From: Escherichia coli | GTDB taxonomy: Bacteria > Pseudomonadota > Gammaproteobacteria > Enterobacterales > Enterobacteriaceae | NCBI RefSeq assembly: GCF_030384885.1 | Contig: NZ_CP128613.1 | DNA: 64,000 bases | Strand: one strand, 5' to 3' | Position numbers and translations under genes: made by a program | In this document: positions 1-64,000 of the stretch, in pieces | Layout: every line of letters begins with the position of its first letter | Numbering within the stretch: the stretch's first letter is position 1 | Notes under the pieces: generated by a model | Told to the model about the DNA's origin: nothing | Seen by the model: only the letters and a program-made list of their open reading frames with translations | The model's database searches: none

Positions 1-915
1 TTCGACCAGCGGCTCTGCATATTGTGTCCGCGTGTAGTGCACCAGCCGGTGCCGGCTGTCGTAATGGTACCGGTGAGTCCGCTCATCATCCGTGCGGATA
101 ACCCCTTCCGGGATGAGGTCGGTTTTCTCCGTCAGCCTGCCGTGACGGTCATACCGGTAAAGATAGTGCGCGTCACGTGTTATACGGTTATCCGGCCACA
201 TGCTGAGGGTGCTGTCCGGGTGCAGCTCCGGGTCAGGCAGGCGGTTACCTGCCGGGTCCGTGGCATACGGGATGCGGATATCCAGATTTGAGGTGGTGGT
301 GTGGACGCCGGTCAGCCTGCCGGTGGTGCTGTAGCTGTAACTCCGGGTCTGGCGCGGGCTGCTGATGCGGATGAGTTCGCCGTTGTCGTTCCAGGTGTAA
401 TCGCGGTCATACTGCAGGCTGTTCAGGTGCTGGCTCTGTAACTGCCCGGCAGGGGTATAAGCGGTGGTGAGTTCATAACGGCCGAAGCTGCGCAGCGTTT
501 CCCGGTGCAGGCGGTCGCGGGTGAAATCCACCAGCGGTGTGTCGCCGAGTTTCATCCCTGCCAGGTAACCACTGCCATAAGTCAGCCATTCCACGGCGGG
601 CAGGCTGTCCGGTATACAGCGGTTCGCCAGCCCCTGCGCGTTGTACGCATGTCTGGTTTCATGCTGCCAGAGCAGTTCATTCGTCTGCGGGTGATGCACC
701 GTCTGGCGCTCACCGGTCAGGGCAAGGTCGGTTTCGCCGGGAAGGACCTTTGCACCGAGCAACGGATTGACCGGATGACCGGACGTCACCCCGCCGGGGC
801 ACACCGAACAGGCCACGCTGGTGGGGGCACCAATACGTACCCCGGCTGAACCCTGAACAATGCTACCGCCATACTGCGTCATGTCGCCCTGACGCGCCGC
901 CGGTTTTCCGCTCAT
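1..915 (-). CDS. Rhs-family core protein, N-terminal part (start codon at 915-913; 3' end runs off window start). N-terminal ~67 aa fused in frame to late-core YD-repeat sequence
   Basis: Manual reverse-strand translation gives [68 protein letters not shown] then [31 protein letters not shown]... with no stop through position 1; matches Rhs N-terminus and YD-repeat core from memory; divergent from yibF as in K-12 rhsA. Confidence 0.75.
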
Positions 916-1143
916 CTGCTCATCCTTGTTTTATCGGGTTATTTGTCTGCTGACAGGCGAAACCCTACAGATTTATAAGAAAGCCTTAAGTGAGATATCT
1001 GTCAGATAAGAACAATTAGGAAAATATTTATATCACCATGATAAATATGTGATTTATTGGGAGGTAACAAACCATCAACATTTTCTGCCCTTTTTCCCAT
1101 CACCAGGCCATACTGATATTTTTCCTCGCACAAAGGACTCGGC

Positions 1144-1752
1144 ATGAAACTCGTCGGTAGCTACACCAGCCCGTTTGTACGCAAACTTTCTATTCTGTTG
1201 TTAGAAAAGGGCATAACTTTCGAATTTATTAATGAACTGCCCTATAACGCGGACAACGGCGTGGCGCAATTTAACCCGTTAGGGAAAGTGCCGGTGCTGG
1301 TGACTGAAGAGGGCGAATGTTGGTTTGATTCGCCGATCATCGCTGAATATATTGAATTAATGAATGTCGCTCCGGCGATGTTGCCGCGCGATCCGCTGGA
1401 GTCGTTGCGAGTGCGCAAAATTGAGGCGCTGGCGGATGGCATTATGGATGCCGGGCTGGTATCGGTGCGTGAACAGGCACGTCCGGCGGCGCAGCAGTCT
1501 GAAGATGAATTGTTACGCCAGCGGGAGAAAATCAACCGCAGTCTGGATGTGCTGGAAGGATATCTGGTCGATGGCACGCTCAAAACCGATATGGTCAACC
1601 TGGCGACTATCGCCATTGCCTGTGCCGTCGGATATCTCAATTTCCGCCGCGTTGCGCCAGGCTGGTGTGTCGACCGCCCACACTTAGTCAAACTGGTCGA
1701 AAACCTGTTTAGCCGCGAAAGTTTTGCCCGCACCGAACCGCCAAAGGCTTGA
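1144..1752 (+). CDS. yibF: Glutathione S-transferase-like protein YibF
   Basis: 202-aa ORF, recognised sequence, expected position next to selA. Confidence 0.9.
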
Positions 1753-1849
1753 TGCGCGATATGTCCTCCTGACCCATCTCACGTTACAATCCGTGGTTAT
1801 GTTAAACGCCCTTCTCCGTGTGAGAGGGCCTTGATCAACCAGGTTTCCT

Positions 1850-3241
1850 ATGACAACCGAAACGCGTTCCCTCTATAGTCAACTTCCGGCTATTGATCGC
1901 TTATTGCGCGATAGCTCTTTCCTTTCTTTGCGTGATACCTATGGTCACACCCGCGTGGTGGAGTTGCTGCGTCAGATGCTTGACGAAGCGCGAGAAGTGA
2001 TTCGTGACAACCAGACGCTGCCCGCATGGTGTGAAAACTGGGCGCAAGAAGTCGATGCCCGGCTGACGAAGGAGGCGCAGAGCGCGCTGCGTCCGGTGAT
2101 CAACCTGACGGGAACCGTGCTGCATACCAATCTTGGGCGAGCTTTACAGGCAGAAGCCGCGGTGGAAGCCGTTGCGCAGGCTATGCGTTCGCCAGTGACC
2201 CTCGAGTACGATCTGGACGACGCCGGACGCGGACATCGCGATCGGGCGCTGGCACAGCTGCTGTGCCGCATTACGGGGGCGGAAGATGCCTGTATCGTTA
2301 ATAACAATGCGGCGGCGGTATTGTTGATGTTGGCGGCCACTGCCAGTGGGAAAGAGGTGGTGGTATCTCGCGGCGAACTGGTGGAGATTGGCGGCGCGTT
2401 TCGTATTCCTGATGTCATGCGTCAGGCAGGCTGCACCCTACACGAAGTGGGGACCACCAATCGCACGCACGCTAATGATTATCGCCAGGCGGTGAATGAA
2501 AATACCGCTCTGTTGATGAAAGTACATACCAGTAACTACAGCATTCAGGGGTTCACCAAAGCGATAGATGAAGCTGAACTGGTGGCGCTCGGCAAAGAGC
2601 TGGATGTTCCAGTGGTGACGGATTTAGGCAGTGGCTCGCTAGTCGATCTTAGCCAGTACGGTTTGCCGAAAGAGCCAATGCCGCAGGAGTTGATTGCGGC
2701 GGGCGTCAGTCTGGTGAGCTTCTCCGGCGACAAGCTGTTAGGCGGGCCGCAGGCAGGAATTATTGTTGGTAAAAAAGAGATGATCGCCCGCCTGCAAAGC
2801 CATCCACTGAAGCGTGCATTACGCGCGGATAAAATGACCCTCGCGGCGCTGGAAGCCACGTTGCGTCTTTATTTACACCCTGAGGCGCTGAGTGAAAAAT
2901 TACCGACCCTGCGTCTGCTTACCCGCAGCGCAGAGGTCATTCAAATCCAGGCACAACGTTTACAGGCCCCCCTTGCCGCACATTACGGCGCGGAGTTCGC
3001 GGTACAGGTTATGCCATGTCTTTCGCAGATTGGCAGTGGTTCGCTGCCGGTTGATCGCCTGCCGAGCGCGGCATTAACGTTTACACCCCATGATGGACGC
3101 GGTAGCCACCTTGAGTCATTAGCCGCCCGCTGGCGTGAATTGCCAGTGCCGGTGATTGGTCGTATTTATGACGGACGATTGTGGCTGGATTTACGCTGCC
3201 TTGAAGATGAGCAACGGTTTTTGGAGATGTTGTTGAAATGA
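1850..3241 (+). CDS. selA: L-seryl-tRNA(Sec) selenium transferase (selenocysteine synthase)
   Basis: 463-aa ORF, recognised; 4-bp ATGA overlap with selB. Confidence 0.93.
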
Positions 3242-5082
3242 TTATTGCGACTGCCGGACACGTTGACCACGGCAAAACAACCTTATTGCAGGCGATTACT
3301 GGCGTAAATGCCGACCGTCTGCCGGAAGAAAAAAAGCGCGGTATGACCATCGATCTCGGCTATGCCTACTGGCCGCAGTCAGATGGTCGCGTGCCTGGTT
3401 TTATCGACGTTCCCGGCCATGAAAAATTTCTTTCCAACATGCTGGCGGGCGTCGGGGGAATCGATCACGCGCTGTTGGTGGTGGCGTGCGATGACGGCGT
3501 GATGGCACAGACTCGTGAGCATCTGGCGATTTTGCAGCTGACCGGTAACCCGATGCTGACAGTGGCGCTGACCAAAGCCGATCGCGTGGACGAAGCGCGT
3601 GTTGATGAGGTTGAACGCCAGGTAAAGGAGGTGCTGCGGGAATACGGTTTTGCTGAGGCAAAACTGTTTATCACCGCAGCAACCGAAGGCCGGGGAATTG
3701 ATGCCCTGCGCGAGCATCTGCTTCAGTTACCAGAACGTGAACACGCCAGCCAACATAGCTTCCGCCTCGCTATCGACCGTGCTTTTACCGTAAAAGGTGC
3801 CGGGCTGGTCGTCACCGGTACGGCGTTAAGTGGGGAAGTGAAGGTAGGCGATTCACTCTGGCTGACTGGTGTAAATAAACCGATGCGCGTGCGTGCGCTA
3901 CATGCGCAAAATCAGCCAACAGAAACTGCCCATGCCGGGCAGCGTATCGCGCTTAACATCGCGGGTGATGCGGAAAAAGAGCAGATTAACCGTGGCGACT
4001 GGCTGCTTGCCGATGCGCCGCCGGAGCCGTTCACACGGGTGATTGTCGAGCTTCAAACCCATACACCGCTGACCCAGTGGCAGCCGCTGCATATTCACCA
4101 CGCCGCCAGCCACGTCACGGGACGCGTTTCGCTGCTGGAAGATAACCTTGCCGAGTTGGTGTTCGACACGCCGCTGTGGCTGGCAGATAACGATCGCTTA
4201 GTGCTACGCGATATCTCGGCCCGCAACACGCTGGCGGGGGCGCGCGTGGTGATGCTTAACCCGCCGCGTCGCGGTAAACGTAAGCCGGAATATCTGCAAT
4301 GGCTGGCGTCTCTTGCACAGGCGCAGAGCGATGCCGATGCGTTAGCTATTCATCTGGAACGCGGAGCGGTTAACCTTGCTGATTTCGCCTGGGCGCGCCA
4401 GCTCAACGGCGAAGGGATGCGTGAACTGCTGCAGCAACCGGGCTATATTCAGGCCGGTTATAGCTTGTTGAATGCGCCGGTTGCCGCTCGTTGGCAGCGT
4501 AAAATTCTCGATACCCTGGCGACTTATCATGAGCAGCATCGCGATGAACCAGGTCCTGGGCGCGAGCGTCTGCGGCGCATGGCGTTGCCAATGGAAGATG
4601 AAGCGCTGGTGCTGTTGCTGATTGAAAAGATGCGCGAAAGCGGCGACATCCTCAGTCATCACGGTTGGCTGCATCTGCCGGATCATAAAGCGGGATTCAG
4701 CGAAGAGCAGCAGGCTATCTGGCAAAAAGCGGAGCCGCTGTTTGGTGACGAGCCGTGGTGGGTGCGTGACCTGGCAAAAGAGACGGGAACCGACGAGCAG
4801 GCAATGCGTTTGACGCTACGCCAGGCGGCCCAACAGGGGATAATTACCGCGATCGTTAAAGATCGTTATTACCGTAACGATCGGATTGTCGAGTTTGCCA
4901 ATATGATCCGCGATCTCGATCAGGAATGTGGTTCAACCTGCGCGGCGGATTTCCGCGATCGCTTAGGTGTAGGCCGAAAGCTGGCAATTCAAATTCTGGA
5001 ATATTTTGACCGTATTGGCTTTACGCGTCGCCGTGGAAATGATCATTTATTGCGCGACGCATTATTATTTCCCGAAAAATAA
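3238..5082 (+). CDS. selB: Selenocysteine-specific translation elongation factor
   Basis: 614-aa ORF with N-terminal GTPase motif [11 protein letters not shown], recognised. Confidence 0.93.
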
Positions 5083-5139
5083 GGGAACGATTAATTCATA
5101 ATAAATATGAATTAATACAAAGTTCTTATTAATGTTAAG

Positions 5140-5177
5140 GAAGCACGTTATTTGATGAATGTAACGTGCTTTTTATT
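5140..5177 (+). terminator. Rho-independent terminator downstream of selB
   Basis: Inverted repeat agcacgtta / taacgtgct followed by T-run. Confidence 0.6.
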
Positions 5178-5271
5178 AAAAATATTTTAATAAACGGTAA
5201 TGTTGATCATATTTTCAAATGAAAATCCTCAGTAAGCTGCCCGCCCTTTTTTACACTTTCAGGAGTGTGTT

Positions 5272-6423
5272 ATGGCAGCTTCAACCTTTTTTATTCCTTC
5301 CGTGAATGTTATTGGTGCTGATTCATTGAATGATGCAATGAATATGATGGCAGATTATGGATTTACCCGTACCTTAATTGTCACCGACAATATGTTAACG
5401 AAATTGGGTATGGCGGGTGATGTGCAAAAAGCACTGGAAGAACGCAATATTTTTAGCGTTATTTATGATGGCACCCAACCTAACCCCACCACGGAAAACG
5501 TCGCTGCAGGTTTGAAATTACTTAAAGAAAATAATTGCGATAGCGTAATCTCCCTGGGCGGTGGTTCTCCGCACGACTGTGCAAAAGGTATTGCGCTGGT
5601 TGCAGCCAACGGCGGTGACATCCGCGATTATGAAGGCGTTGACCGCTCTGCAAAACCGCAGTTGCCGATGATCGCCATCAACACCACGGCGGGTACGGCA
5701 TCAGAAATGACCCGTTTTTGCATCATCACCGATGAAGCACGTCACATCAAAATGGCGATTGTGGATAAGCACGTCACTCCGCTGCTTTCTGTCAATGACT
5801 CCTCGCTGATGATCGGTATGCCGAAGTCACTGACCGCTGCAACGGGTATGGATGCCTTAACGCACGCTATCGAAGCGTATGTGTCTATTGCCGCCACGCC
5901 GATCACCGACGCTTGCGCACTGAAAGCGGTGACTATGATTGCTGAAAACCTGCCCTTAGCCGTTGAAGATGGCAGCAATGAGAAAGCGCGCGAAGCAATG
6001 GCTTACGCTCAGTTCCTCGCGGGTATGGCGTTCAACAATGCGTCTCTGGGTTATGTTCATGCGATGGCGCACCAGCTGGGCGGTTTCTACAACCTGCCAC
6101 ACGGTGTATGTAATGCTGTTCTGCTGCCACACGTTCAGGTGTTCAACAGCAAAGTCGCTGCTGCACGTTTGCGTGACTGCGCTGCTGCGATGGGTGTTAA
6201 CGTGACAGGTAAAAACGATGCGGAAGGTGCAGAAGCCTGCATCAATGCCATCCGTGAACTGGCGAAGAAAGTGAATATCCCGGCAGGCTTGCGTGACCTG
6301 AACGTGAAAGAAGAAGATTTCGCGGTACTGGCGACCAATGCCCTGAAAGATGCCTGCGGCTTTACTAACCCGATTCAGGCAACTCACGAAGAAATTGTGG
6401 CGATTTATCGCGCGGCGATGTAA
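5272..6423 (+). CDS. yiaY: Iron-containing (group III) alcohol dehydrogenase
   Basis: 383-aa ORF, Fe-ADH family features, recognised. Confidence 0.9.
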
Positions 6424-6623
6424 TCATCATTCCCATAATGGCTGGCTAATTGTCAGCCATTTTTTCAACTCTCTCAAAATTTGCGATTTTTGAGAGAGTT
6501 TTAGTTATCTCTGTAATCCTTGCCCGTAAATTCGTGATAGCCGTCGTAAAGCTATCACCAGCTGGCGAAGATTTCGCCAGTCACGTCTACCCTTGTTATA
6601 CCTCACACCGCAAGGAGACGATC

Positions 6624-8162
6624 ATGACCAACAATCCCCCTTCAGCACAGATTAAGCCCGGCGAGTATGGCTTCCCCCTCAAGTTAAAAGCCCGCTACGA
6701 CAACTTTATTGGCGGCGAATGGGTAGCCCCTGCCGACGGCGAGTATTACCAGAACCTGACGCCGGTGACCGGGCAGCTACTGTGCGAAGTGGCGTCTTCG
6801 GGCAAACGAGATATCGATCTGGCGCTGGATGCTGCGCATAAAGTGAAAGATAAATGGGCGCATACTTCGGTGCAGGATCGCGCGGCGATTCTGTTTAAGA
6901 TTGCCGATCGAATGGAGCAGAACCTCGAACTTTTAGCGACGGCTGAAACCTGGGATAACGGCAAACCCATTCGCGAAACCAGTGCTGCTGATGTACCGCT
7001 GGCGATTGACCACTTCCGCTATTTCGCCTCGTGTATTCGGGCGCAGGAAGGCGGTATTAGCGAAGTGGATAGCGAAACCGTGGCTTATCACTTCCACGAA
7101 CCGTTAGGCGTGGTGGGGCAGATTATCCCGTGGAACTTCCCGCTGTTGATGGCGAGCTGGAAAATGGCTCCCGCGCTGGCGGCGGGCAACTGTGTGGTGC
7201 TGAAACCCGCACGTCTTACCCCGCTTTCTGTACTGCTGCTAATGGAAATCGTTGGTGATTTACTGCCGCCGGGCGTGGTGAACGTGGTTAACGGCGCTGG
7301 TGGGGAAATTGGCGAATATCTGGCGACCTCGAAACGCATCGCCAAAGTGGCGTTTACCGGCTCAACGGAAGTGGGCCAACAAGTTATGCAGTACGCCACG
7401 CAAAATATTATTCCGGTAACCCTGGAACTGGGCGGCAAGTCGCCAAATATCTTCTTTGCTGATGTGATGGATGAAGAAGATGCCTTTTTCGATAAAGCGC
7501 TGGAAGGCTTTGCACTGTTTGCTTTTAACCAGGGCGAAGTTTGCACCTGTCCAAGTCGTGCCTTAGTGCAGGAGTCTATCTACGAACGCTTTATGGAACG
7601 CGCCATCCGCCGTGTCGAAAGCATTCGTAGCGGTAACCCGCTCGACAGCGTGACGCAAATGGGGGCGCAGGTTTCTCACGGGCAATTGGAAACCATCCTC
7701 AACTACATTGATATTGGTAAAAAAGAGGGCGCAGACGTGCTCACCGGCGGGCGGCGCAAGCTGCTGGAAGGCGAACTGAAAGACGGCTACTACCTCGAAC
7801 CGACGATTCTGTTTGGTCAGAACAATATGCGCGTTTTCCAGGAAGAAATTTTTGGCCCGGTGCTGGCGGTAACCACCTTCAAAACGATGGACGAGGCGCT
7901 GGAGCTGGCGAACGACACGCAATATGGTCTGGGCGCAGGTGTCTGGAGTCGTAACGGCAATCTGGCCTATAAGATGGGGCGCGGCATTCAGGCCGGACGC
8001 GTATGGACCAACTGTTATCATGCCTACCCGGCACACGCAGCATTTGGCGGCTATAAGCAGTCGGGCATCGGGCGCGAAACCCATAAGATGATGCTGGAGC
8101 ATTATCAGCAAACCAAGTGCTTGCTGGTGAGCTACTCGGATAAACCATTGGGGCTGTTCTGA
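6624..8162 (+). CDS. aldB: Aldehyde dehydrogenase B
   Basis: Start chosen at ATG 6624 ([18 protein letters not shown] aaggag upstream) giving 512 aa; the track ORF from 6450 is an upstream in-frame extension. Confidence 0.9.
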
Positions 8163-8193
8163 TGTAAGAAGCTGGTCGCATCGGGAGGTCATT

Positions 8194-8295
8194 GCCTGAT
8201 GCGACGCTTTCGCGTCTTATCATGCCTGGGGGGGCATATATTTACGCCTGACTCCTGACCGTAGGCCGGATAAGGCGTTCACGCCGCATCCGGCA
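8194..8295. repeat. REP/BIME palindromic units
   Basis: gcctgatgcgacgc...cgtcttatcatgcc and taggccggataaggcgttcacgccgcatccggca consensus REP sequences. Confidence 0.85.
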
Positions 8296-8411
8296 TAAAC
8301 AAAGCGCACGTTGTTACAATTTGCGTTTTAAACCTACATGCGCAATAACCCAGACTACGCCAACAGAAGTGCGTTTCTGGCGGAAGCTGCCCGGCGTGTA
8401 TTGCCGGGCGT

Positions 8412-8747
8412 TTAATCTCGCGTTTCGATGGTGAGCGGGCGGACCAGGCTGTACAGCCACAGACCAAAACAAGCGATGGTGCCAATCACCACGGTGAGGA
8501 ACACACTGACTGACAGGCCTGCAAGCAATCCCGCAGGCAGGGCCAGCAGGCCGTGGATCACGGTGTCGTTCCATCTCACCAGATCGTAGCCAAACATGCC
8601 TAAAACGCCGCAAACCAGACCGTAAATCACCATTGGTGTTCCGAGGCCAATCAGCAATAAACGGTAGATAATTGAAGGTTTAATACGCTTTATCTGTACT
8701 GTGGATGTTTTACTGGGGTTATTCATTAGTTTGGTCAATAGTTCCAT
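8412..8747 (-). CDS. Hypothetical small membrane protein (three hydrophobic segments); may be spurious
   Basis: Open frame in otherwise intergenic DNA; strongly hydrophobic helix-like segments; start uncertain (ATG 8747 or track start 8795). Confidence 0.3.
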   Translation of the reverse strand: MELLTKLMNNPSKTSTVQIKRIKPSIIYRLLLIGLGTPMVIYGLVCGVLGMFGYDLVRWNDTVIHGLLALPAGLLAGLSVSVFLTVVIGTIACFGLWLYSLVRPLTIETRD

Positions 8748-8908
8748 TATTTCAATATGATAAACCTCGACCTGTTGAAAAGCCAGGTAGCACACTTCAG
8801 AAAGTATATAAAAAACAATATGTCGTTATATAAATAAGGAAATTGCACTGCATCATGGCATTTCATAATATGCGTTAATTGTTCTTTTTTATATTCTCTG
8901 AGGGAAAT

Positions 8909-9232
8909 ATGTTCCTGGACTATTTTGCACTGGGAGTGCTTATTTTTGTATTTCTGGTGATATTCTATGGGATTATTATTTTACATGATATTCCCTACCT
9001 GATTGCTAAAAAACGTAATCATCCTCATGCCGACGCCATTCATGTTGCTGGTTGGGTGAGTCTTTTTACGCTGCATGTTATCTGGCCATTTTTGTGGATT
9101 TGGGCCACGCTTTACCGCCCGGAGCGGGGATGGGGAATGCAAAACTATGACTCCTCCGTTGTGCAACTACAACAGCGTATTGCCGGGCTGGAGAAACAGC
9201 TCGCCGACATCAAATCCTCTTCTGCCGAGTAA
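8909..9232 (+). CDS. yiaW: Inner membrane protein YiaW (DUF3302)
   Basis: 107 aa from ATG 8909 ([11 protein letters not shown]), RBS gagggaaa; 6 bp upstream of yiaV. Confidence 0.85.
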
Positions 9233-52429: not shown

Positions 52430-52989
52430 GGTTTATTTCCCGGATAGCAACAGCAGCCAACCACATGATCATTCACCAGCCCACATGCCTGCATAAAGGA
52501 GTAACAGATTGTGGTACCAACAAACTTAAAACCACGCTTTTTCAGGGCTTTAGATAGAGCGTCGGAGGCGGGCGTAGATGTAGGGATTTCGCTCAACGTT
52601 GTGGCTTGTGTCACCTGTGGTTGATGATTGACAAACGACCAAACAAAGTCGGCAAACGGTTCGCCGTTCTGTTCCATTTGCAGGTACGCTCGCGCATTGC
52701 CAATAATTGCCTGAATTTTCCCGCGATGGCGGATAATCCCGGCGTCCTGTACCAGTCTTTCGACGTCCTCTTCCTGCATTGCAGCCACCTTCACCGGATC
52801 GAACTGATGAAAGCTGGCGCGATAGTTTTCGCGTTTTTTGAGGACGGTGATCCACGATAATCCAGCCTGCTGCCCTTCAAGGCAGATCATTTCGAACAGT
52901 TTTTTACTGTCAGTTTCAGGCACGCCCCATTCATTATCATGGTAGGCAATATAAAGCGGGTCCTGACTCACCCAGCCGCAACGTTCCAT
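52426..52989 (-). CDS. tag: DNA-3-methyladenine glycosylase I
   Basis: Start at ATG 52989 (MERCGWVSQDPLYIAYHDNEWG, RBS agggaa) giving 187 aa. Confidence 0.92.
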   Translation of the reverse strand: MERCGWVSQDPLYIAYHDNEWGVPETDSKKLFEMICLEGQQAGLSWITVLKKRENYRASFHQFDPVKVAAMQEEDVERLVQDAGIIRHRGKIQAIIGNARAYLQMEQNGEPFADFVWSFVNHQPQVTQATTLSEIPTSTPASDALSKALKKRGFKFVGTTICYSFMQACGLVNDHVVGCCCYPGNKP

Positions 52990-53146
52990 ACTTTCCCTCG
53001 CTATGTACCCGATCGTAAAAATTTCAGCCGCTTTTCTTGACGCATCGGTGAAAAAGTCAATATTTAATACAGGGCTACTATGCCCGATATCCTTCATACA
53101 ATGACAATAATATTGCCGAATTCGGCTCTTCCCTGGAGTCGTGTTA

Positions 53147-53845
53147 ATGATCATAAAAAAAAGCGGTGGTCGCTGACAGTTAAGCCTGCTGGCGAGCGTG
53201 GTAATCAGTGCCTTTTTTCTCAACACAGCTTACGCCTGGCAACAAGAATATATCGTTGATACGCAACCCGGACATTCCACAGAGCGCTACACCTGGGATA
53301 GCGATCATCAACCTGATTACAACGATATTCTGTCGCAACGTATTCAAAGTAGCCAAAGGGCGCTGGGACTGGAAGTCAATCTGGCGGAAGAAACCCCTGT
53401 GGATGTGACCAGCAGTATGAGTATGGGCTGGAATTTTCCTTTATATGAACAGGTTACAACCGGCCCGGTCGCGGCATTACATTACGATGGTACAACCACC
53501 TCGATGTATAACGAGTTTGGCGACAGTACTACTACACTGACTGATCCGTTATGGCATGCCAGTGTGAGTACCTTAGGCTGGCGTGTTGACTCCCGGCTTG
53601 GCGATCTCCGACCCTGGGCGCAAATCAGCTATAACCAGCAATTTGGCGAGAATATCTGGAAGGCGCAATCAGGCTTAAGCCGGATGACGGCGACAAACCA
53701 GAACGGCAACTGGCTGGATGTCACGGTAGGTGCTGATATGTTGCTCAATCAAAATATTGCCGCCTACGCTGCGTTATCTCAGGCAGAAAATACCACGAAC
53801 AATAATGACTATCTGTATACGATGGGGGTTAGTGCCAGATTTTAA
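53147..53845 (+). pseudogene. yhjY: yhjY (autotransporter beta-domain protein) with in-frame TGA at codon 10 (53174-53176); possible pseudogene or reinitiation at GTG 53198
   Basis: ATG 53147 to stop 53845 is 232 codons in one frame except the TGA; reading TGA as a sense codon restores a canonical signal peptide MIIKKSGGR-x-QLSLLASVVISAFFLNTAYA. Confidence 0.65.
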
Positions 53846-54073
53846 CGTTATAGAAACAATTGAAACCCATAAATAACAACTAATGTGGCGATAGTGGGGA
53901 CTAACTTACTAAATAATAAATTTGGTGAATAATTGTCGAGTCATTCATTCCTGAACTAATGCATTTCATTCCGTTCTGATGGCATTTCATGCCGTTTTTC
54001 CCCAGGCATAAAGTGCACTTCGTTATGGTTGTCAGCAGAGATTTTTCCTTTTTATTACTGCAGGAATACTGCC

Positions 54074-55282
54074 ATGACACCTTCAAATTATCAGCGTACT
54101 CGCTGGCTGACACTCATCGGTACTATCATTACCCAGTTTGCCCTGGGGTCGGTTTATACCTGGAGTCTGTTTAACGGCGCGCTTTCTGCCAAGCTGGGGG
54201 CTCCGGTAAGCCAGGTTGCTTTCTCTTTCGGCTTGTTAAGTCTGGGGCTGGCAATTTCGTCTTCTGTTGCGGGCAAATTGCAAGAACGTTTTGGTGTTAA
54301 ACGCGTCACTATGGCTTCCGGCATTTTGCTGGGATTAGGTTTCTTCCTGACAGCACATTCCAACAACCTGATGATGCTGTGGTTAAGCGCCGGTGTGTTG
54401 GTTGGTCTGGCGGATGGTGCGGGTTACCTGTTGACGCTCTCTAACTGCGTGAAGTGGTTCCCGGAGCGTAAGGGACTCATCTCTGCTTTCGCTATTGGTT
54501 CTTATGGACTTGGTAGTCTGGGTTTCAAATTTATCGATACGCAACTGTTGGAAACGGTCGGTCTGGAAAAAACCTTTGTTATTTGGGGCGCGATTGTACT
54601 GGTGATGATTATCTTTGGCGCAACGTTAATGAAAGATGCGCCGAAACAGGAAGTGAAAACCAGCAATGGTGTGGTGGAGAAGGATTACACGCTGGCAGAG
54701 TCGATGCGTAAACCGCAGTACTGGATGTTAGCAGTTATGTTCCTGACTGCCTGCATGAGTGGCCTGTATGTGATTGGCGTGGCGAAAGATATCGCTCAAA
54801 GTCTGGCGCATCTTGATGCAATTTCCGCAGCCAATGCTGTGACGGTTATTTCCATCGCCAACCTTTCTGGTCGTCTGGTGCTGGGCATTCTGTCTGACAA
54901 AATCGCCCGTATCCGTGTTATCACCATTGGTCAGGTCATTTCGCTGGTGGGCATGGCGGCCCTGCTGTTTGCACCATTGAATGCAGTGACGTTCTTTGCA
55001 GCGATTGCCTGCGTGGCATTTAACTTCGGCGGCACTATCACGGTGTTCCCGTCACTGGTCAGTGAGTTCTTCGGCCTAAATAATCTGGCAAAAAACTACG
55101 GTGTGATTTACCTCGGTTTCGGAATCGGCAGCATTTGTGGTTCGATTATCGCTTCACTGTTTGGCGGATTCTATGTGACATTCTACGTGATTTTCGCCCT
55201 GCTGATTCTGTCACTGGCGCTTTCTACGACGATTCGCCAGCCAGAGCAGAAAATGTTGCGTGAGGCGCATGGCTCCCTTTAA
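54074..55282 (+). CDS. yhjX: MFS transporter YhjX (oxalate/formate antiporter family)
   Basis: Start at ATG 54074 (MTPSNYQRTRWLTL) giving 402 aa. Confidence 0.9.
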   Translation: MTPSNYQRTRWLTLIGTIITQFALGSVYTWSLFNGALSAKLGAPVSQVAFSFGLLSLGLAISSSVAGKLQERFGVKRVTMASGILLGLGFFLTAHSNNLMMLWLSAGVLVGLADGAGYLLTLSNCVKWFPERKGLISAFAIGSYGLGSLGFKFIDTQLLETVGLEKTFVIWGAIVLVMIIFGATLMKDAPKQEVKTSNGVVEKDYTLAESMRKPQYWMLAVMFLTACMSGLYVIGVAKDIAQSLAHLDAISAANAVTVISIANLSGRLVLGILSDKIARIRVITIGQVISLVGMAALLFAPLNAVTFFAAIACVAFNFGGTITVFPSLVSEFFGLNNLAKNYGVIYLGFGIGSICGSIIASLFGGFYVTFYVIFALLILSLALSTTIRQPEQKMLREAHGSL

Positions 55283-55605
55283 TGACCTGCCGCGAGCTAC
55301 TGGGCTTTAGCCTTAGTGTGAATCAAACGCTTCAACGCAATGTATAAACAATGACGCGTAAAATTTGGGCCAGTGAACTGGCCCTTTTTACTGCTTTTTG
55401 TAACGCTAAAGTCTCTTTTCAAACTTGCATTTTTGTAAATTTGTGCTTCATGCACACTCTTTCCCCACACTTTTTCCCTTTGCTGTGGTCTACTTATTCG
55501 CGCGTGTAGATTTTACTTATCTGACTACCTCCGCACTTTTCCCCTGCCGGGCCTGAAAAGCCACTAAGCAGGGTGTTATCACCTGTTTGTCCAGGGTTTG
55601 TTTGC

Positions 55606-57297
55606 ATGAGATACATCAAATCGATTACACAGCAGAAGCTGAGCTTTTTGCTTGCAATCTATATTGGCCTTTTTATGAATGGCGCGGTTTTTTACCGCCG
55701 CTTCGGCAGCTATGCGCACGATTTTACCGTCTGGAAAGGCGTTTCTGCTGTTGTTGAACTGGTCGCTACCGTACTGGTGACCTTCTTTTTACTGCGTCTG
55801 CTTTCGCTGTTTGGCCGCCGCAGCTGGCGAATTCTGGCATCGCTGGTGGTGCTCTTTTCTGCAGGTGCCAGCTATTACATGACTTTCCTTAATGTGGTCA
55901 TTGGTTATGGCATCATCGCATCCGTCATGACCACCGATATCGACCTGTCAAAAGAAGTTGTTGGTCTGAACTTTATTCTCTGGTTAATCGCCGTAAGCGC
56001 ATTGCCTCTTATCCTTATCTGGAATAACCGCTGTCGCTACACCTTGCTCCGACAACTGCGAACCCCAGGGCAACGTATTCGGAGTCTGGCGGTCGTCGTA
56101 CTGGCAGGTATTATGGTTTGGGCACCGATTCGTTTGCTGGATATCCAGCAGAAGAAAGTGGAGAGGGCGACAGGTGTTGATTTGCCGAGTTATGGTGGCG
56201 TTGTCGCGAACTCTTATCTGCCATCAAACTGGCTTTCGGCGTTAGGTCTTTATGCCTGGGCGCGGGTCGATGAATCTTCCGATAACAATTCTCTCCTTAA
56301 CCCTGCGAAGAAGTTTACGTACCAGGCTCCACAAAACGTTGATGATACATATGTCGTTTTCATTATTGGTGAAACCACGCGCTGGGATCATATGGGCATT
56401 TTCGGCTATGAACGCAATACCACACCGAAACTGGCTCAGGAGAAAAATCTGGCGGCGTTTCGTGGCTATTCTTGTGACACGGCGACCAAACTTTCTCTGC
56501 GTTGCATGTTTGTGCGTCAGGGTGGAGCAGAAGATAATCCGCAGCGCACATTAAAAGAACAGAACATTTTCGCGGTATTGAAGCAGTTAGGATTCAGTTC
56601 TGATCTCTACGCTATGCAAAGCGAAATGTGGTTCTACAGCAATACGATGGCGGACAATATTGCTTATCGTGAGCAGATTGGTGCGGAACCGCGTAACCGC
56701 GGCAAGCCGGTAGATGATATGTTGCTGGTAGACGAAATGCAGCAATCGCTGGGGCGTAACCCGGATGGTAAGCATCTGATCATTCTGCATACCAAGGGGT
56801 CGCACTTTAACTACACCCAGCGTTACCCGCGCAGCTTTGCGCAGTGGAAGCCAGAATGTATTGGTGTTGATAGCGGCTGTACCAAAGCGCAGATGATCAA
56901 CTCCTACGACAACTCGGTGACCTATGTGGATCACTTTATTTCCAGCGTGATTGATCAGGTTCGCGATAAGAAAGCGATTGTGTTCTACGCAGCTGACCAC
57001 GGTGAGTCAATTAATGAACGCGAGCACCTGCACGGCACACCGCGTGAACTGGCACCGCCGGAGCAGTTCCGCGTACCGATGATGGTCTGGATGTCGGATA
57101 AATATCTGGAAAATCCAGCCAACGCGCAGGCATTTGCGCAGCTGAAAAAAGAAGCCGACATGAAAGTGCCACGCCGTCACGTAGAGCTGTACGACACCAT
57201 CATGGGTTGTCTTGGCTATACTTCACCGGACGGTGGTATTAACGAAAACAACAACTGGTGCCACATCCCGCAGGCAAAAGAGGCAGCGGCTAACTAA
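55606..57297 (+). CDS. eptB: Kdo(2)-lipid A phosphoethanolamine transferase
   Basis: Start at ATG 55606 ([10 protein letters not shown]) giving 563 aa; N-terminal TM domain plus sulfatase-like domain. Confidence 0.9.
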
Positions 57298-57388
57298 GAA
57301 GCCTGCTGACTTTCTCGCCGATCAAAAGGCATTTTGCTATTAAGGGATTGACGAGGGCGTATCTGCGCAGTAAGATGCGCCCCGCATT

Positions 57389-57465
<77 letters not shown>

Positions 57466-57471
57466 AATTCG

Positions 57472-57500
57472 AAAAGCCTGCTCAGCGAGCAGGCTTTTTT
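57472..57500 (+). terminator. Rho-independent terminator of proK
   Basis: aaaagcctgctcagcgagcaggctttttt. Confidence 0.8.
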
Positions 57501-57515
57501 GCATTTGAAGCCCAT

Positions 57516-57787
57516 GAGGATGAGAACCTCCGGGGGCGGGGAGGTTCGACTCGAGCGAAGCGAGAGAACGTTGCGCCAGCAACGGCCCGCAGGGCGAGCC
57601 ACGAAGTGGCGAGTAATCCTCTATCACCGACCAATTTAGAAAAACCAGCCTACGGGCTGGTTTTTTGCTTTCTGCGACCTGAAGAGGATAAGAACCTCCG
57701 GGGGCAGGGAGGTTCGACTCGAGCAAAGCGAGAGAACGTTGTGGCAGCAACGGCCCGCAGTGGCGAGTAATCCTCTGGCACCGACCA
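57516..57787 (+). repeat. Two tandem degenerate repeat units (57516-57633 and 57681-57787), each ending in a tRNA-Pro 3'-end-like sequence, separated by a terminator-like hairpin (57640-57668)
   Basis: Units share gagaacctccggggg(c/a)ggggaggttcgactcgagc...gcgagagaacgttg...cagcaacggcccgcag...tggcgagtaatcctct(a/g)(t/g)caccgacca; final 19 nt resemble the proK 3' end. Confidence 0.7.
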
Positions 57788-58414
57788 AAACGGCCCCGCA
57801 TTCATTGTCGGATACAGCGTACCTGTCTTATCCGATCTAAACGGCAACACACCACATATTTCCCTGCCAAATTTGCGCCCCACATCTCACTATCCATTAA
57901 CGGATTTGTGACAGAATCCATTGTCTTTTTTTATATTTGCTTAAATCTTTTTTTGCGTTACTTATGGCTGGCGCTGGCATTTTCCGCTGTGCGTTTTAGC
58001 GTTCATGGTATTAATCGCTCAGATATCCATCTTTTCCTCAGATTTTTTTCATTAAATGCATAAAACTTAATCACCAAATGTTGCTAAATATTAAGCTGAT
58101 TGTTCTGGTTATGTTGGCGTAGCACAAATTTCTCTGCTGCAAATAGCTGTTTGAAGTTTTTTTAATCTTTGTTTGTGGATTCTCACCGTTGGTGTAAATC
58201 CCGGTTGGCTGTATTGACGTTTTCACATTCTGTTGACAGATTGTAGGTCACGAGGGGCATTTTATGGAGGATCCGCACTGTTACACTGATGTTAATTAGT
58301 ACGGCATCCCCACCTCATAACGTTGACCCGACCGGGTAAAAAACAAAAAAGGTCAGGCAGCGACAACCCACTGCAAAGGGTTAAAACAACAAACATCACA
58401 ATTGGAGCAGAATA

Positions 58415-60022
58415 ATGCGTATTTCCTTGAAAAAGTCAGGGATGCTGAAGCTTGGTCTCAGCCTGGTGGCTATGACCGTCGCAGCAAGTGTTCAGGCTAA
58501 AACTCTGGTTTATTGCTCAGAAGGATCTCCGGAAGGGTTTAACCCGCAGCTGTTTACCTCCGGCACCACCTATGACGCCTCTTCCGTACCGCTTTATAAC
58601 CGCCTGGTTGAATTTAAAATCGGCACCACTGAAGTGATTCCGGGCCTCGCTGAAAAGTGGGAAGTCAGCGAAGACGGTAAAACCTATACCTTCCATCTGC
58701 GTAAAGGTGTGAAGTGGCATAACAACAAAGAATTCAAACCGACGCGCGAACTGAATGCCGATGACGTGGTGTTCTCGTTCGATCGTCAGAAAAACGCACA
58801 AAACCCGTACCATAAAGTTTCTGGCGGCAGCTACGAATACTTCGAAGGTATGGGCTTGCCGGAGCTGATCAGCGAAGTGAAAAAGGTGGACGACAACACC
58901 GTTCAGTTCGTGCTGACTCGCCCGGAAGCGCCGTTCCTTGCTGACCTGGCAATGGACTTCGCCTCTATTCTGTCAAAAGAATATGCTGACGCGATGATGA
59001 AAGCCGGTACGCCGGAAAAACTGGACCTCAACCCAATCGGCACCGGCCCGTTCCAGTTACAGCAATATCAAAAAGATTCCCGTATTCGCTACAAAGCGTT
59101 TGATGGCTACTGGGGCACCAAACCGCAGATCGATACGCTGGTCTTCTCTATTACTCCTGACGCTTCCGTGCGTTACGCTAAATTGCAGAAGAACGAATGC
59201 CAGGTGATGCCGTACCCGAACCCGGCAGACATCGCTCGCATGAAGCAGGATAAATCCATCAACCTGATGGAAATGCCGGGGCTGAACGTCGGCTATCTCT
59301 CGTATAACGTGCAGAAAAAACCACTGGATGACGTGAAAGTTCGCCAGGCACTGACCTATGCGGTGAACAAAGACGCGATTATCAAAGCGGTGTATCAGGG
59401 CGCTGGCGTATCAGCGAAAAACCTGATCCCGCCAACCATGTGGGGCTATAACGATGATGTTCAGGACTACACCTACGATCCTGAAAAAGCGAAAGCCTTG
59501 CTGAAAGAAGCGGGTCTGGAAAAAGGCTTCTCTATCGACCTGTGGGCAATGCCGGTACAACGTCCGTATAACCCGAACGCTCGTCGCATGGCAGAGATGA
59601 TTCAGGCAGACTGGGCGAAAGTCGGCGTACAAGCGAAAATCGTTACCTACGAATGGGGTGAGTACCTCAAGCGTGCAAAAGATGGCGAGCACCAGACGGT
59701 AATGATGGGCTGGACTGGCGATAACGGGGATCCGGATAACTTCTTCGCTACCCTGTTTAGCTGCGCTGCCTCTGAACAAGGCTCCAACTACTCAAAATGG
59801 TGCTACAAACCGTTTGAAGATCTGATTCAACCGGCGCGTGCTACCGACGACCACAACAAGCGTGTTGAACTGTACAAACAAGCACAGGTCGTGATGCACG
59901 ATCAGGCTCCGGCACTGATCATCGCTCACTCCACCGTGTTTGAACCGGTACGCAAAGAAGTTAAAGGCTATGTGGTTGATCCATTAGGCAAACATCACTT
60001 CGAAAACGTCTCTATCGAATAA
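58415..60022 (+). CDS. dppA: Dipeptide ABC transporter periplasmic binding protein
   Basis: 535-aa ORF with signal peptide, recognised. Confidence 0.95.
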   Translation: MRISLKKSGMLKLGLSLVAMTVAASVQAKTLVYCSEGSPEGFNPQLFTSGTTYDASSVPLYNRLVEFKIGTTEVIPGLAEKWEVSEDGKTYTFHLRKGVKWHNNKEFKPTRELNADDVVFSFDRQKNAQNPYHKVSGGSYEYFEGMGLPELISEVKKVDDNTVQFVLTRPEAPFLADLAMDFASILSKEYADAMMKAGTPEKLDLNPIGTGPFQLQQYQKDSRIRYKAFDGYWGTKPQIDTLVFSITPDASVRYAKLQKNECQVMPYPNPADIARMKQDKSINLMEMPGLNVGYLSYNVQKKPLDDVKVRQALTYAVNKDAIIKAVYQGAGVSAKNLIPPTMWGYNDDVQDYTYDPEKAKALLKEAGLEKGFSIDLWAMPVQRPYNPNARRMAEMIQADWAKVGVQAKIVTYEWGEYLKRAKDGEHQTVMMGWTGDNGDPDNFFATLFSCAASEQGSNYSKWCYKPFEDLIQPARATDDHNKRVELYKQAQVVMHDQAPALIIAHSTVFEPVRKEVKGYVVDPLGKHHFENVSIE

Positions 60023-60057
60023 TTAAAAGCCATACAAGGTTGATGGCAAACGCAAAA

Positions 60058-60158
<101 letters not shown>

Positions 60159-60329
60159 TGACCAAAGCGTACTTTGTCAACAATCTGCATACCCGGTGGT
60201 GCTGTGCCTTTAAGTGCAGCGCCATCCGGCAGCAATACTTAATTCCTTGTCCTATAAGGGCGGGAATTGATTTGTGAGCAATACAGACTCGCAGTTCCAG
60301 GCTGCGGGTCACTACAGAGAATCCGGGTT

Positions 60330-61349
60330 ATGTTGCAGTTTATTCTCCGACGTTTGGGACTCGTCATCCCCACGTTTATCGGTATTACCCTTCTCACATT
60401 TGCCTTTGTCCACATGATCCCGGGCGATCCGGTGATGATCATGGCGGGTGAACGTGGGATCTCCCCAGAGCGTCACGCACAATTGCTGGCAGAACTCGGC
60501 TTGGATAAACCGATGTGGCAGCAGTATCTCCATTACATTTGGGGTGTAATGCACGGTGATTTAGGCATTTCGATGAAAAGCCGCATCCCGGTTTGGGAAG
60601 AGTTCGTGCCGCGCTTCCAGGCCACGCTGGAACTTGGCGTCTGCGCGATGATTTTTGCGACCGCGGTCGGTATTCCGGTTGGTGTGCTGGCTGCGGTTAA
60701 ACGCGGTTCTATTTTCGATCACACGGCGGTTGGTCTGGCGCTGACCGGCTACTCCATGCCGATCTTCTGGTGGGGCATGATGTTGATCATGCTGGTTTCG
60801 GTGCACTGGAACCTGACGCCTGTCTCCGGTCGCGTGAGCGACATGGTGTTCCTCGATGACTCCAATCCGTTAACCGGTTTTATGCTAATCGACACCGCCA
60901 TCTGGGGTGAAGACGGTAACTTTATCGATGCCGTCGCCCATATGATCCTGCCCGCCATTGTGCTGGGTACTATCCCGCTGGCGGTCATTGTACGTATGAC
61001 GCGCTCCTCGATGCTGGAAGTGCTGGGCGAGGATTACATCCGCACCGCGCGTGCCAAAGGGCTGACCCGCCTTAGGGTGATTATCGTCCATGCGCTGCGT
61101 AATGCCATGCTGCCGGTGGTGACCGTTATCGGCCTGCAGGTGGGAACATTGCTGGCAGGCGCGATTCTGACCGAAACCATCTTCTCGTGGCCAGGTCTGG
61201 GGCGCTGGTTGATTGACGCGCTGCAACGCCGCGATTATCCGGTAGTGCAGGGAGGCGTATTACTGGTGGCGACGATGATTATCCTCGTCAACCTGCTGGT
61301 CGATCTGCTGTACGGCGTGGTGAACCCGCGTATTCGTCATAAGAAGTAA
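60330..61349 (+). CDS. dppB: Dipeptide ABC transporter permease
   Basis: Start at ATG 60330 (MLQFILRRLGLVIPTFIG) giving 339 aa. Confidence 0.92.
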   Translation: MLQFILRRLGLVIPTFIGITLLTFAFVHMIPGDPVMIMAGERGISPERHAQLLAELGLDKPMWQQYLHYIWGVMHGDLGISMKSRIPVWEEFVPRFQATLELGVCAMIFATAVGIPVGVLAAVKRGSIFDHTAVGLALTGYSMPIFWWGMMLIMLVSVHWNLTPVSGRVSDMVFLDDSNPLTGFMLIDTAIWGEDGNFIDAVAHMILPAIVLGTIPLAVIVRMTRSSMLEVLGEDYIRTARAKGLTRLRVIIVHALRNAMLPVVTVIGLQVGTLLAGAILTETIFSWPGLGRWLIDALQRRDYPVVQGGVLLVATMIILVNLLVDLLYGVVNPRIRHKK

Positions 61350-61358
61350 GGGGACATC

Positions 61359-62261
61359 ATGTCACAGGTTACTGAAAATAAAGTGATTAGCGCACCGGTG
61401 CCGATGACCCCGTTACAGGAGTTCTGGCACTATTTTAAACGCAACAAAGGCGCGGTTGTCGGGCTGGTTTACGTCGTCATCGTGCTGTTTATCGCGATCT
61501 TTGCCAACTGGATTGCACCCTATAACCCAGCGGAACAGTTCCGCGATGCACTGCTCGCCCCGCCAGCCTGGCAAGAAGGCGGCAGTATGGCGCACTTGCT
61601 GGGCACCGATGACGTAGGTCGTGATGTGCTGTCGCGGCTGATGTACGGCGCGCGCTTGTCGCTGCTGGTTGGCTGTCTGGTAGTGGTGTTATCGCTGATT
61701 ATGGGCGTTATTCTCGGCCTGATCGCTGGTTACTTTGGCGGCCTGGTCGATAACATCATCATGCGCGTGGTCGATATCATGCTGGCGCTGCCAAGTCTGC
61801 TGCTGGCGCTGGTGCTGGTGGCGATTTTCGGCCCGTCGATTGGTAACGCCGCGCTGGCGCTAACCTTCGTTGCGCTGCCGCACTATGTGCGCTTAACCCG
61901 CGCCGCCGTGCTGGTGGAGGTGAATCGCGATTACGTCACCGCGTCTCGCGTGGCGGGGGCCGGGGCGATGCGTCAGATGTTTATTAACATCTTCCCGAAC
62001 TGCCTTGCGCCGCTGATTGTTCAGGCGTCGCTCGGTTTCTCTAACGCCATTCTCGATATGGCTGCTCTTGGTTTCCTCGGCATGGGAGCGCAGCCGCCAA
62101 CACCGGAGTGGGGCACCATGCTCTCCGATGTGTTGCAGTTCGCGCAAAGCGCCTGGTGGGTCGTAACCTTCCCCGGTCTGGCGATCCTGCTGACGGTGCT
62201 GGCATTTAACCTGATGGGTGACGGTCTGCGTGACGCGCTCGATCCCAAACTGAAGCAGTAA
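61359..62261 (+). CDS. dppC: Dipeptide ABC transporter permease
   Basis: 300-aa membrane ORF, recognised. Confidence 0.93.
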
Positions 62262-62271
62262 GAGGTTCGAG

Positions 62272-63255
62272 ATGGCGTTATTAAATGTAGATAAATTATC
62301 GGTGCATTTCGGCGACGAAAGCGCACCGTTCCGCGCCGTAGACCGTATCAGCTACAGCGTAAAACAGGGCGAAGTGGTCGGAATTGTGGGTGAGTCTGGC
62401 TCCGGTAAGTCGGTCAGTTCACTGGCGATTATGGGGCTGATTGATTATCCGGGCCGCGTGATGGCAGAAAAGCTGGAGTTTAACGGCCAGGATTTGCAGC
62501 GTATCTCGGAAAAAGAGCGCCGCAACCTGGTGGGTGCCGAAGTGGCGATGATCTTTCAGGACCCGATGACCAGCCTCAACCCGTGTTACACCGTAGGTTT
62601 CCAGATTATGGAAGCAATTAAAGTGCATCAGGGCGGTAATAAGAGCACTCGCCGTCAGCGGGCGATTGATCTGCTGAATCAGGTCGGTATTCCCGATCCG
62701 GCATCGCGTCTGGATGTTTACCCGCATCAGCTTTCTGGCGGCATGAGCCAGCGTGTGATGATCGCCATGGCGATTGCCTGTCGGCCAAAACTGCTGATTG
62801 CTGATGAGCCGACCACCGCGCTGGACGTGACCATTCAGGCACAAATCATCGAACTGCTGCTGGAGCTGCAGCAGAAAGAGAACATGGCGCTGGTGTTGAT
62901 TACCCATGACCTGGCGCTGGTGGCGGAAGCGGCGCATAAAATCATCGTCATGTATGCAGGCCAGGTGGTGGAAACGGGCGATGCCCACGCCATCTTCCAT
63001 GCACCGCGTCATCCGTATACTCAGGCATTGCTGCGCGCGCTGCCGGAATTTGCCCAGGACAAAGAACGTCTGGCGTCATTGCCTGGCGTCGTTCCTGGCA
63101 AATACGACCGACCGAATGGCTGCCTGCTTAACCCGCGTTGCCCCTATGCCACTGACAGATGCCGTGCTGAAGAACCGGCGCTGAATATGCTCGCTGACGG
63201 GCGTCAGTCCAAATGCCATTACCCACTTGATGATGCCGGGAGGCCCACACTATGA
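62272..63255 (+). CDS. dppD: Dipeptide ABC transporter ATP-binding protein
   Basis: 327-aa ORF with Walker A GESGSGKS, recognised. Confidence 0.93.
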
Positions 63256-64000
63256 GTACGCAAGAGGCCACCCTGCAACAACCGCTGTTGCAGGCTATCG
63301 ACCTGAAAAAACATTATCCGGTGAAGAAAGGCATGTTCGCGCCGGAACGTCTTGTAAAGGCGCTGGATGGCGTTTCGTTTAATCTTGAACGTGGCAAAAC
63401 GCTGGCAGTAGTGGGTGAATCTGGCTGCGGTAAGTCGACCCTCGGTCGGTTGCTGACGATGATTGAAACGCCCACCGGCGGCGAACTGTATTACCAGGGG
63501 CAGGATCTGCTCAAGCACGATCCGCAGGCGCAGAAGTTGCGTCGGCAGAAAATCCAGATCGTCTTTCAGAATCCCTATGGCTCGCTGAATCCGCGTAAAA
63601 AAGTCGGGCAAATTCTTGAAGAGCCGCTGCTTATTAACACCAGTTTAAGCAAAGAACAGCGTCGGGAAAAAGCGTTGTCGATGATGGCAAAAGTTGGCCT
63701 AAAAACCGAGCATTACGACCGCTACCCGCATATGTTCTCCGGCGGTCAGCGTCAGCGTATCGCCATTGCCCGTGGTCTGATGCTCGACCCGGATGTGGTG
63801 ATTGCCGATGAACCGGTTTCCGCGCTGGACGTTTCAGTGCGTGCGCAGGTGCTGAATCTGATGATGGATTTGCAGCAGGAGTTGGGGCTGTCTTATGTCT
63901 TTATCTCGCACGACCTGTCGGTGGTGGAGCACATTGCTGATGAAGTGATGGTGATGTACCTGGGCCGCTGCGTGGAGAAGGGAACGAAGGACCAAATCTT
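63252..64000 (+). CDS. dppF: Dipeptide ABC transporter ATP-binding protein, 5' part (runs off window end)
   Basis: ATG 63252 overlapping the dppD stop (ATGA); Walker [10 protein letters not shown]; open to the window end. Confidence 0.9.

Follow-up and report, generated by a model that had tools for sequence, protein, structure and literature searches.

A recent in-frame internal deletion in a clade-I rhs gene at the rhsA position of Escherichia coli, probably an early-stage pseudogene

Introduction

Tse5 of Pseudomonas aeruginosa is a T6SS Rhs effector of described structure (PDB 8cp6). It has a PAAR-like N-terminal fragment of 47 residues, which is cleaved between K47 and P48 just before the motif PVNPMLG, and a shell of 40 beta-hairpins that is closed by a C-terminal aspartyl-protease plug (PMC10684867; see also PMC8636562). 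In this structure the N-terminal plug at residues 48-124 (DUF6531) holds the N-terminal fragment in place, and residues 326-363 of the shell are arranged around the cleavage site (PMC10684867). Among the rhs genes, pseudogenes and relics with a high turnover are documented (PMC2935791; PMC3032704). In NCBIfam, the RHS element core protein is the equivalog family NF041261, which has a profile of 1261 positions and a curated cutoff of 2000 bits.

The gene described here lies at one end of a 64,000-nucleotide stretch of E. coli DNA (contig NZ_CP128613.1, assembly GCF_030384885.1), which is referred to below as the window. An initial annotation had read a minus-strand frame from the ATG at 915-913 as an Rhs N-terminus fused in frame to late YD-repeat core sequence, apparently through an internal deletion. 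The gene is compared below with an intact counterpart from a near-identical genome, with other internally deleted rhs alleles of E. coli, and with Tse5.

Results

Locus and intact counterpart

The visible part of the rhs gene is an open frame of 305 codons on the minus strand (window 915-1), and the gene continues past the window start (Table 1). Since the window ends inside the gene, the toxin tip and the immunity gene lie beyond the window start and are known only from relatives. The neighbours of the gene are yibF, selA, selB, yiaY and aldB, according to the list of open reading frames and the annotation of matching genomes; therefore, the gene sits at the chromosomal rhsA position of E. 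coli K-12. Several complete E. coli genomes match window positions 916-9000 at 100% identity, and at the rhsA position they carry a full-length rhs gene of ~4.2 kb. The intact counterpart is a 1389-aa protein annotated as "RHS element core protein" (WP_106907706.1) in strain 2013C-4282, which is encoded at the same locus adjoining yibF and has the same start codon. The 228-nt upstream region and the ribosome-binding site of the deleted gene are the same as those of the intact gene.

Table 1. Features of the rhs region in the window
Feature	Position	Strand	Basis
Internally deleted clade-I rhs gene, 5' part (305 codons)	1..915	-	Translation, blastn, NCBIfam RHS_core in two stretches
Codons 67-305, equal to intact residues 751-989, late YD-repeat shell	1..717	-	100% identical to 2013C-4282 rhs nt 2247-2967
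Deletion junction: microhomology CCTG (721-718), A (717), CCGG (716-713)	713..721	-	Base-by-base three-way comparison
Codons 48-66, start of the DUF6531 N-terminal plug (19 residues)	718..774	-	Aligns to Tse5 48-68; remaining plug deleted
Codons 1-47, PAAR-like N-terminal fragment; the PVNPLLG N-terminal autocleavage motif follows directly	775..915	-	Identical to intact relative; layout as Tse5-NT 1-47
yibF-rhs divergent intergenic region, native RBS (AAGGA) and upstream signals	916..1143		No mismatches to 2013C-4282
yibF (glutathione S-transferase), conserved flank marking the rhsA position	1144..1752	+	ORF list, annotation of matching genomes

The window is colinear with the 2013C-4282 genome from position 713 to 50084, with no gaps and six mismatches. 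One of the six, at window position 717, is the junction base itself and the sole apparent mismatch within the rhs gene, which leaves five true SNPs and no indels in 49 kb. General decay of the genome, as in a Shigella-like background, is ruled out by this low divergence from an intact relative.

The last 14 kb of the window are also colinear with 2013C-4282 but are about 1% divergent from 52.6 kb on. Positions 52642-63617 contain 107 mismatches in ~11 kb (~1%) and no indels, compared with five SNPs in the preceding 49 kb. This pattern suggests that a recombination tract begins or ends near 52.6 kb, in the yiaC/tag/yhjY-to-dpp region.

The deletion and its junction

Alignment of the gene to the intact 2013C-4282 rhs by blastn gives two colinear blocks, each at 100% identity: nt 1-203 match nt 1-203, and nt 195-915 match nt 2247-2967. 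The missing block is 2052 nt long, which corresponds to 684 codons (67-750 of the intact protein) and is lost in frame; the rest of the visible gene is identical to the 2013C-4282 gene. At the protein level residue 66 (L) is fused to intact residue 751, so that LALPG and GRLTG become LALTG. The gene differs from that of a near-identical genome by a real deletion and not by a chance resemblance. The two-block match at 100% identity, together with five SNPs per 49 kb without indels, indicates that the deletion is a recent and isolated event. These alignments bear out the main reading of the initial annotation: the first 66 residues of the minus-strand frame are those of the intact Rhs protein, they are joined in frame to the late YD-repeat core, a block is missing where a full-length gene would align colinearly throughout, and no stop codon interrupts the 305 codons up to the window edge.

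The left site in the intact gene is CCTGCCCGG (nt 195-203) and the right site is CCTGACCGG (nt 2247-2255), of which the junction retains CCTGACCGG. The parental contexts are ...TTGCCCTGCCCGGCCCG... and ...GGCCGCCTGACCGGTGAGCG..., and the context in the window is ...TTGCCCTGACCGGTGAGCG.... Exact homology at the junction amounts to 4 nt (CCTG) inside an imperfect 9-mer with 8 of 9 nt matching, CCTG(C/A)CCGG. The three-way comparison with the intact gene found no further similarity between the flanks of the two joined sites and no inserted sequence at the junction. The marks of a microhomology-mediated (illegitimate) deletion are present, namely a short direct repeat at both parental ends and a single hybrid copy left, with no IS element or long homology. 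Since the exact homology is only 4 nt, within the imperfect 9-mer, the deletion is attributed to microhomology-mediated illegitimate recombination; homologous recombination between YD repeats is ruled out, as the joined flanks share nothing longer. A homology of 4 nt is far below the length needed by RecA. The earlier proposal of recombination between short internal repeats at a shared L-T-G motif is therefore correct as to the short repeat, but not if taken as homologous recombination between YD repeats, and the motif is L-T-G on the core side only, the N-terminal side being L-P-G.

Domains kept and lost

The intact protein matches the NCBIfam RHS_core profile over residues 1-1247 (2637 bits, profile positions 1-1261). 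In Pfam it contains DUF6531 at 46-123 (E=1.4e-17), RHS repeats at 318-981, PF03527 at 1143-1179 and the Rhs-associated core at 1170-1247. The deleted product falls below the RHS_core cutoff: its visible part scores 608 bits and the reconstructed product of 705 aa scores 1173 bits, and in each case the two matching stretches skip profile positions ~67-757. Codons 67-305 match profile positions 758-1003 and positions 672-915 of Tse5 chain B.

At the N-terminus, the PAAR-like fragment followed by a PVxxxxG cleavage motif is present, and residues 48-68 align to the start of the Tse5 shell chain. The match of this fragment to the Pfam PAAR_motif is weak and not significant (E=0.35-0.39). A Pfam profile search did not detect DUF6531 in the deleted product, in which 19-21 of the ~78 plug residues are left; otherwise, the equivalents of the Tse5 plug and of shell residues 326-363 all fall within the deleted block. 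A complete YD shell has ~40 hairpins, and the deletion takes away residues 124-750, or ~60% of the shell. The remainder still matches YD-repeat models (TIGR01643, 27.5 bits against a cutoff of 15.8, and PF05593).

The reconstructed 705-aa product still matches the Rhs-associated core (the aspartyl-protease plug) and a Tlde1-like toxin domain. The 2013C-4282 relative carries TIGR03696, the Rhs-associated core with its DPxGL aspartyl protease, and a Tlde1-like domain (PF10908), followed by an Imm57-family immunity gene (L005:7063-11232 and 6537-7058). Strain EC26, whose flank is equally identical to the window, has instead an rhsC-type tip with ybfB and an orphan fragment. Therefore, the C-terminal tip at this locus varies even among very close relatives.

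The same junction in CP8-3

The rhsA gene of strain CP8-3_Sichuan (HP430_RS20160) has the identical 203/2248 junction and the identical in-frame loss of 2052 nt. PGAP calls this gene a pseudogene, yet its open reading frame is uninterrupted for 693 aa to the natural stop; its toxin tip is of type 34 and its immunity gene is yibA. The CP8-3 allele is of the K-12 type, with 99.5-99.8% identity to K-12 rhsA on both sides of the join and 95.7% identity to the window. The two backgrounds differ at 46 of 1151 positions (4%), among them allele-specific SNPs 6 and 8 nt to the left and 12 nt to the right of the join. Each allele is ~100% identical to its own full-length relative. The SNPs at 6-12 nt from the join indicate that the two deletions are of independent origin; an ancestral deletion passed from one allele to the other is ruled out by the presence of these SNPs on both sides and by the match of each allele to its own intact relative.

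The junction is rare. When the CP8-3 junction was used as a megablast query, it was found in one piece in one of 5426 complete genomes, CP8-3 itself. A 120-nt megablast query across the window's junction found the exact allele in none of the 5426 complete E. coli genomes, and CP8-3 was missed there because of the nearby SNPs. The junction pattern is absent from the metagenome contigs scanned. A protein search found no junction-spanning protein among the best 120 matches of the 305-aa product, for which the best coverage was 79-80%, and an exact-sequence lookup of the reconstructed 705-aa protein gave no match.

Other internal rhs deletions in E. coli

Internal deletions at the rhsA, rhsB, rhsC and rhsF loci are common across complete E. 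coli genomes, and most of the internally deleted alleles are flagged as pseudogenes by PGAP. A total of 17 distinct intragenic junction types was mapped in K-12 rhsA coordinates (loci L001, L002, L006-L011, L015-L027), in a sample ascertained by queries that required the 5' end and nt 2248-2967 within ~1 kb. All 17 have 1-4 nt of exact microhomology, and they join 5' nt 40-720 to core nt 1376-2380. The number of in-frame types (4/17) is no different from the one third expected by chance (p=0.45). The gene in the window is a new allele of this known and common type of rhs deletion.

At least 8 complete genomes, of human, river and sea origin, share the in-frame AZ147-type deletion in rhsA (398/1652, 1257 nt; L002), the most widespread deletion allele seen; its 958-aa product is annotated as intact. 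An identical out-of-frame 198/1380 junction, with the same small product of the leftover open reading frame (WP_047613179.1), is present at the rhsC locus of MLI023K1 (L019) and at the rhsB locus of 2017-03-3CC (L026); this may be either recurrence or transfer between paralogs. At the rhsC locus of 11899A_LBHALD (L014:2700-5400), core nt 1448-2703 are followed directly by nt 1-1287, an arrangement of rhs fragments that is permuted or duplicated rather than simply deleted.

Breakpoint clustering

The ends of the mapped deletions are clustered. Left ends occur around nt 140-142, 198-203, 395-399, 576 and 721, and right ends at 1376-1385, 2000 and 2241-2249. There are 12 pairs of left ends at most 5 nt apart, compared with 2.0 expected (P=4e-5), and six such pairs of right ends, compared with 1.35 expected (P=0.004). 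The break after GCCCTG (nt 198) has three partners, nt 1380, 2248 and 2380, and the one before ACCGGTGAG likewise has three, nt 198, 308 and 721. The intact gene holds 2366 9-mer pairs at least as similar as the pair that was used, as well as exact repeats of up to 14 nt, and none of these was used; the longest direct repeats are therefore ruled out as the cause of the clustering. Proximity to CCGG is not enriched at the breakpoints (8/21, against a background of 30%), and hairpin stability at the breakpoints is not significantly greater (P=0.08). The clustering, which includes the same junction in two backgrounds 4% apart, is left unexplained by homology length or hairpin stability.

These observations could mean that rhs cores break recurrently at a few fragile or targeted sites and are then end-joined, so that the same junction arises repeatedly. 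The presence of the 203/2248 junction in both the window and CP8-3 backgrounds, the clustering of both ends with the same break joined to different partners, and the many equal or better repeats left unused are all in favor of such an origin. However, no motif shared by the breakpoints was found, neither CCGG nor hairpins set them apart, the sample was ascertained by queries that needed the 5' end near nt 2248-2967, and some of the shared ends could be nested secondary deletions or the result of transfer between paralogs. Site-preferred breakage is therefore a possible but somewhat unlikely origin of the deletion. The wider proposal is rather doubtful: that rhs cores hold a few preferred breakage sites (~nt 140, 198-203, 395-399, 576, 721, 1376-1385, 2000 and 2241-2249) which are joined with almost no homology, and that the same deletions, including the 2052-bp deletion in the window, recur across alleles and paralogs. 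If it were true, an unrecognised sequence- or structure-directed process of breakage and end joining would act on rhs genes, and the name "rearrangement hot spot" would apply literally within these genes, with Rhs toxins disarmed again and again and the immunity genes spared. Recurrent breakpoints could help to explain how strains shed costly toxins yet keep immunity. If the recurrence were confirmed by an unbiased survey, rhs genes would offer a natural, easily scored system for homology-independent deletion in E. coli. Site-preferred breakage concerns the origin of the deletion and is compatible with reading the gene as a pseudogene.

Discussion

The rhs gene in the window is likely to be an early-stage pseudogene produced by a single recent microhomology deletion. 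The clade-I rhs gene of the yibF/rhsA locus was once full-length and lost 2052 bp in one very recent intragenic deletion, in which microhomology-mediated joining linked CCTGCCCGG to CCTGACCGG. The 4-nt homology suggests that the pathway was probably RecA-independent, either replication slippage or end joining. The in-frame outcome is probably due to chance, and the native ATG and the native upstream region are kept.

By analogy with the structures of Tse5 and Rhs1, the deletion is predicted to abolish both the closure of the cocoon and the anchoring and cleavage of the N-terminal fragment. Since the N-terminal plug and ~60% of the shell are missing, the product would be unable to close the cocoon around the C-terminal toxin, or to anchor or cleave the N-terminal fragment as an intact Rhs protein does. 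The loss of function is thus a probable one, judged from homologue structures. Against decay it can be said that, with an open frame and intact expression signals, the 705-aa protein may well be made. The suggestion in the initial annotation that a shortened Rhs protein could still be produced stands to this extent; however, a product without the N-terminal plug and most of its shell is best read as the output of gene decay, given that the 17 comparable types include no more in-frame deletions than chance predicts.

The alternative is that the in-frame product, with its PAAR-like tip, partial shell, C-terminal plug and toxin, works as a "mini-Rhs", for example by carrying an un-encapsulated toxin on the PAAR-like tip, or that the gene is kept for transcription or translation into the downstream immunity gene. 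The open frame with its native start and upstream region is consistent with this idea, as are the complete 693-aa frame in CP8-3, the Rhs-associated core and Tlde1-like toxin domain retained in the reconstructed product, and the occurrence of the in-frame AZ147-type allele in several genomes. However, the plug and the part of the shell that are gone are required for cocoon closure and for retention of the N-terminal fragment (PMC10684867, PMC8636562), each deletion allele is rare, and the CP8-3 allele with the identical deletion is called a pseudogene by PGAP. The in-frame fraction of 4/17, the rarity of each allele and the documented turnover of rhs genes together point to neutral decay and not to a selected product; a working shortened protein seems improbable.

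It is extremely unlikely that the source genome has a full-length rhs gene and that the deletion was created by mis-assembly across the rhs repeats, which are 95-99% identical between E. coli paralogs, with a median of 8 matching places per genome, and notoriously hard to assemble: although none of 5426 complete genomes has the exact allele, the joined sites share 4-9 nt, far below the overlap or k-mer length of an assembler, repeat collapse joins similar and not dissimilar sequences, an independent complete genome carries the same junction, and other complete genomes contain many analogous microhomology deletions, several of them common to unrelated submissions.

Read as a decaying gene, the locus represents one more step in the known rapid turnover of rhs toxin genes and in itself matters little. 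It does call for caution in annotation, since a remnant without half of its shell can still present an open Rhs-like reading frame and a proper start.

Comparison with known systems

The gene in the window is closest to the intact clade-I Rhs genes of E. coli (RhsA, RhsB, RhsC and RhsF; WP_106907706.1). The codons for residues 1-66 and 751-989 do not differ from those of the intact gene, and the locus, upstream region and start codon are the same. It differs from WP_106907706.1 in the absence of residues 67-750, in a score below the RHS_core cutoff and in an undetectable DUF6531. The layout of the intact gene is that of Tse5, with a PAAR-like fragment, a PVNP(L/M)LG site, a DUF6531 plug, a YD shell, an aspartyl-protease plug and a toxin. 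Unlike Tse5, which has a complete closed shell of 40 beta-hairpins, the product in the window has no equivalent of approximately Tse5 residues 69-704.

Orphan rhs C-terminal tips or "relics" (Jackson et al. 2009, PMC2935791) are similar in that they are partial cores left by rearrangement and form part of the high turnover of the family. Orphan tips lack a native 5' end, lie downstream of a main gene and come from C-terminal displacement by homologous recombination, whereas the gene in the window has an internal loss through microhomology and keeps its native 5' end. It has the ATG, the ribosome-binding site and all of the yibF-rhs intergenic region of the intact main gene without any change, so it is not an orphan or dissociated tip. 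As in the classical deletions between short direct repeats (Bzymek & Lovett 2001, as cited in PMC5426353), the sequence between the repeats is lost and one hybrid copy is left. Classical deletion hot spots follow the longest available repeats, while the rhs deletions use 1-4 nt of exact homology and leave repeats of up to 14 nt unused. The gene shares its kind of microhomology deletion with the other rhs alleles that PGAP flags as pseudogenes. One of these is the rhsA pseudogene of CP8-3, which has the identical junction and the identical 2052-nt loss but in a K-12-type allele, while the allele in the window is of the 2013C-4282 type.
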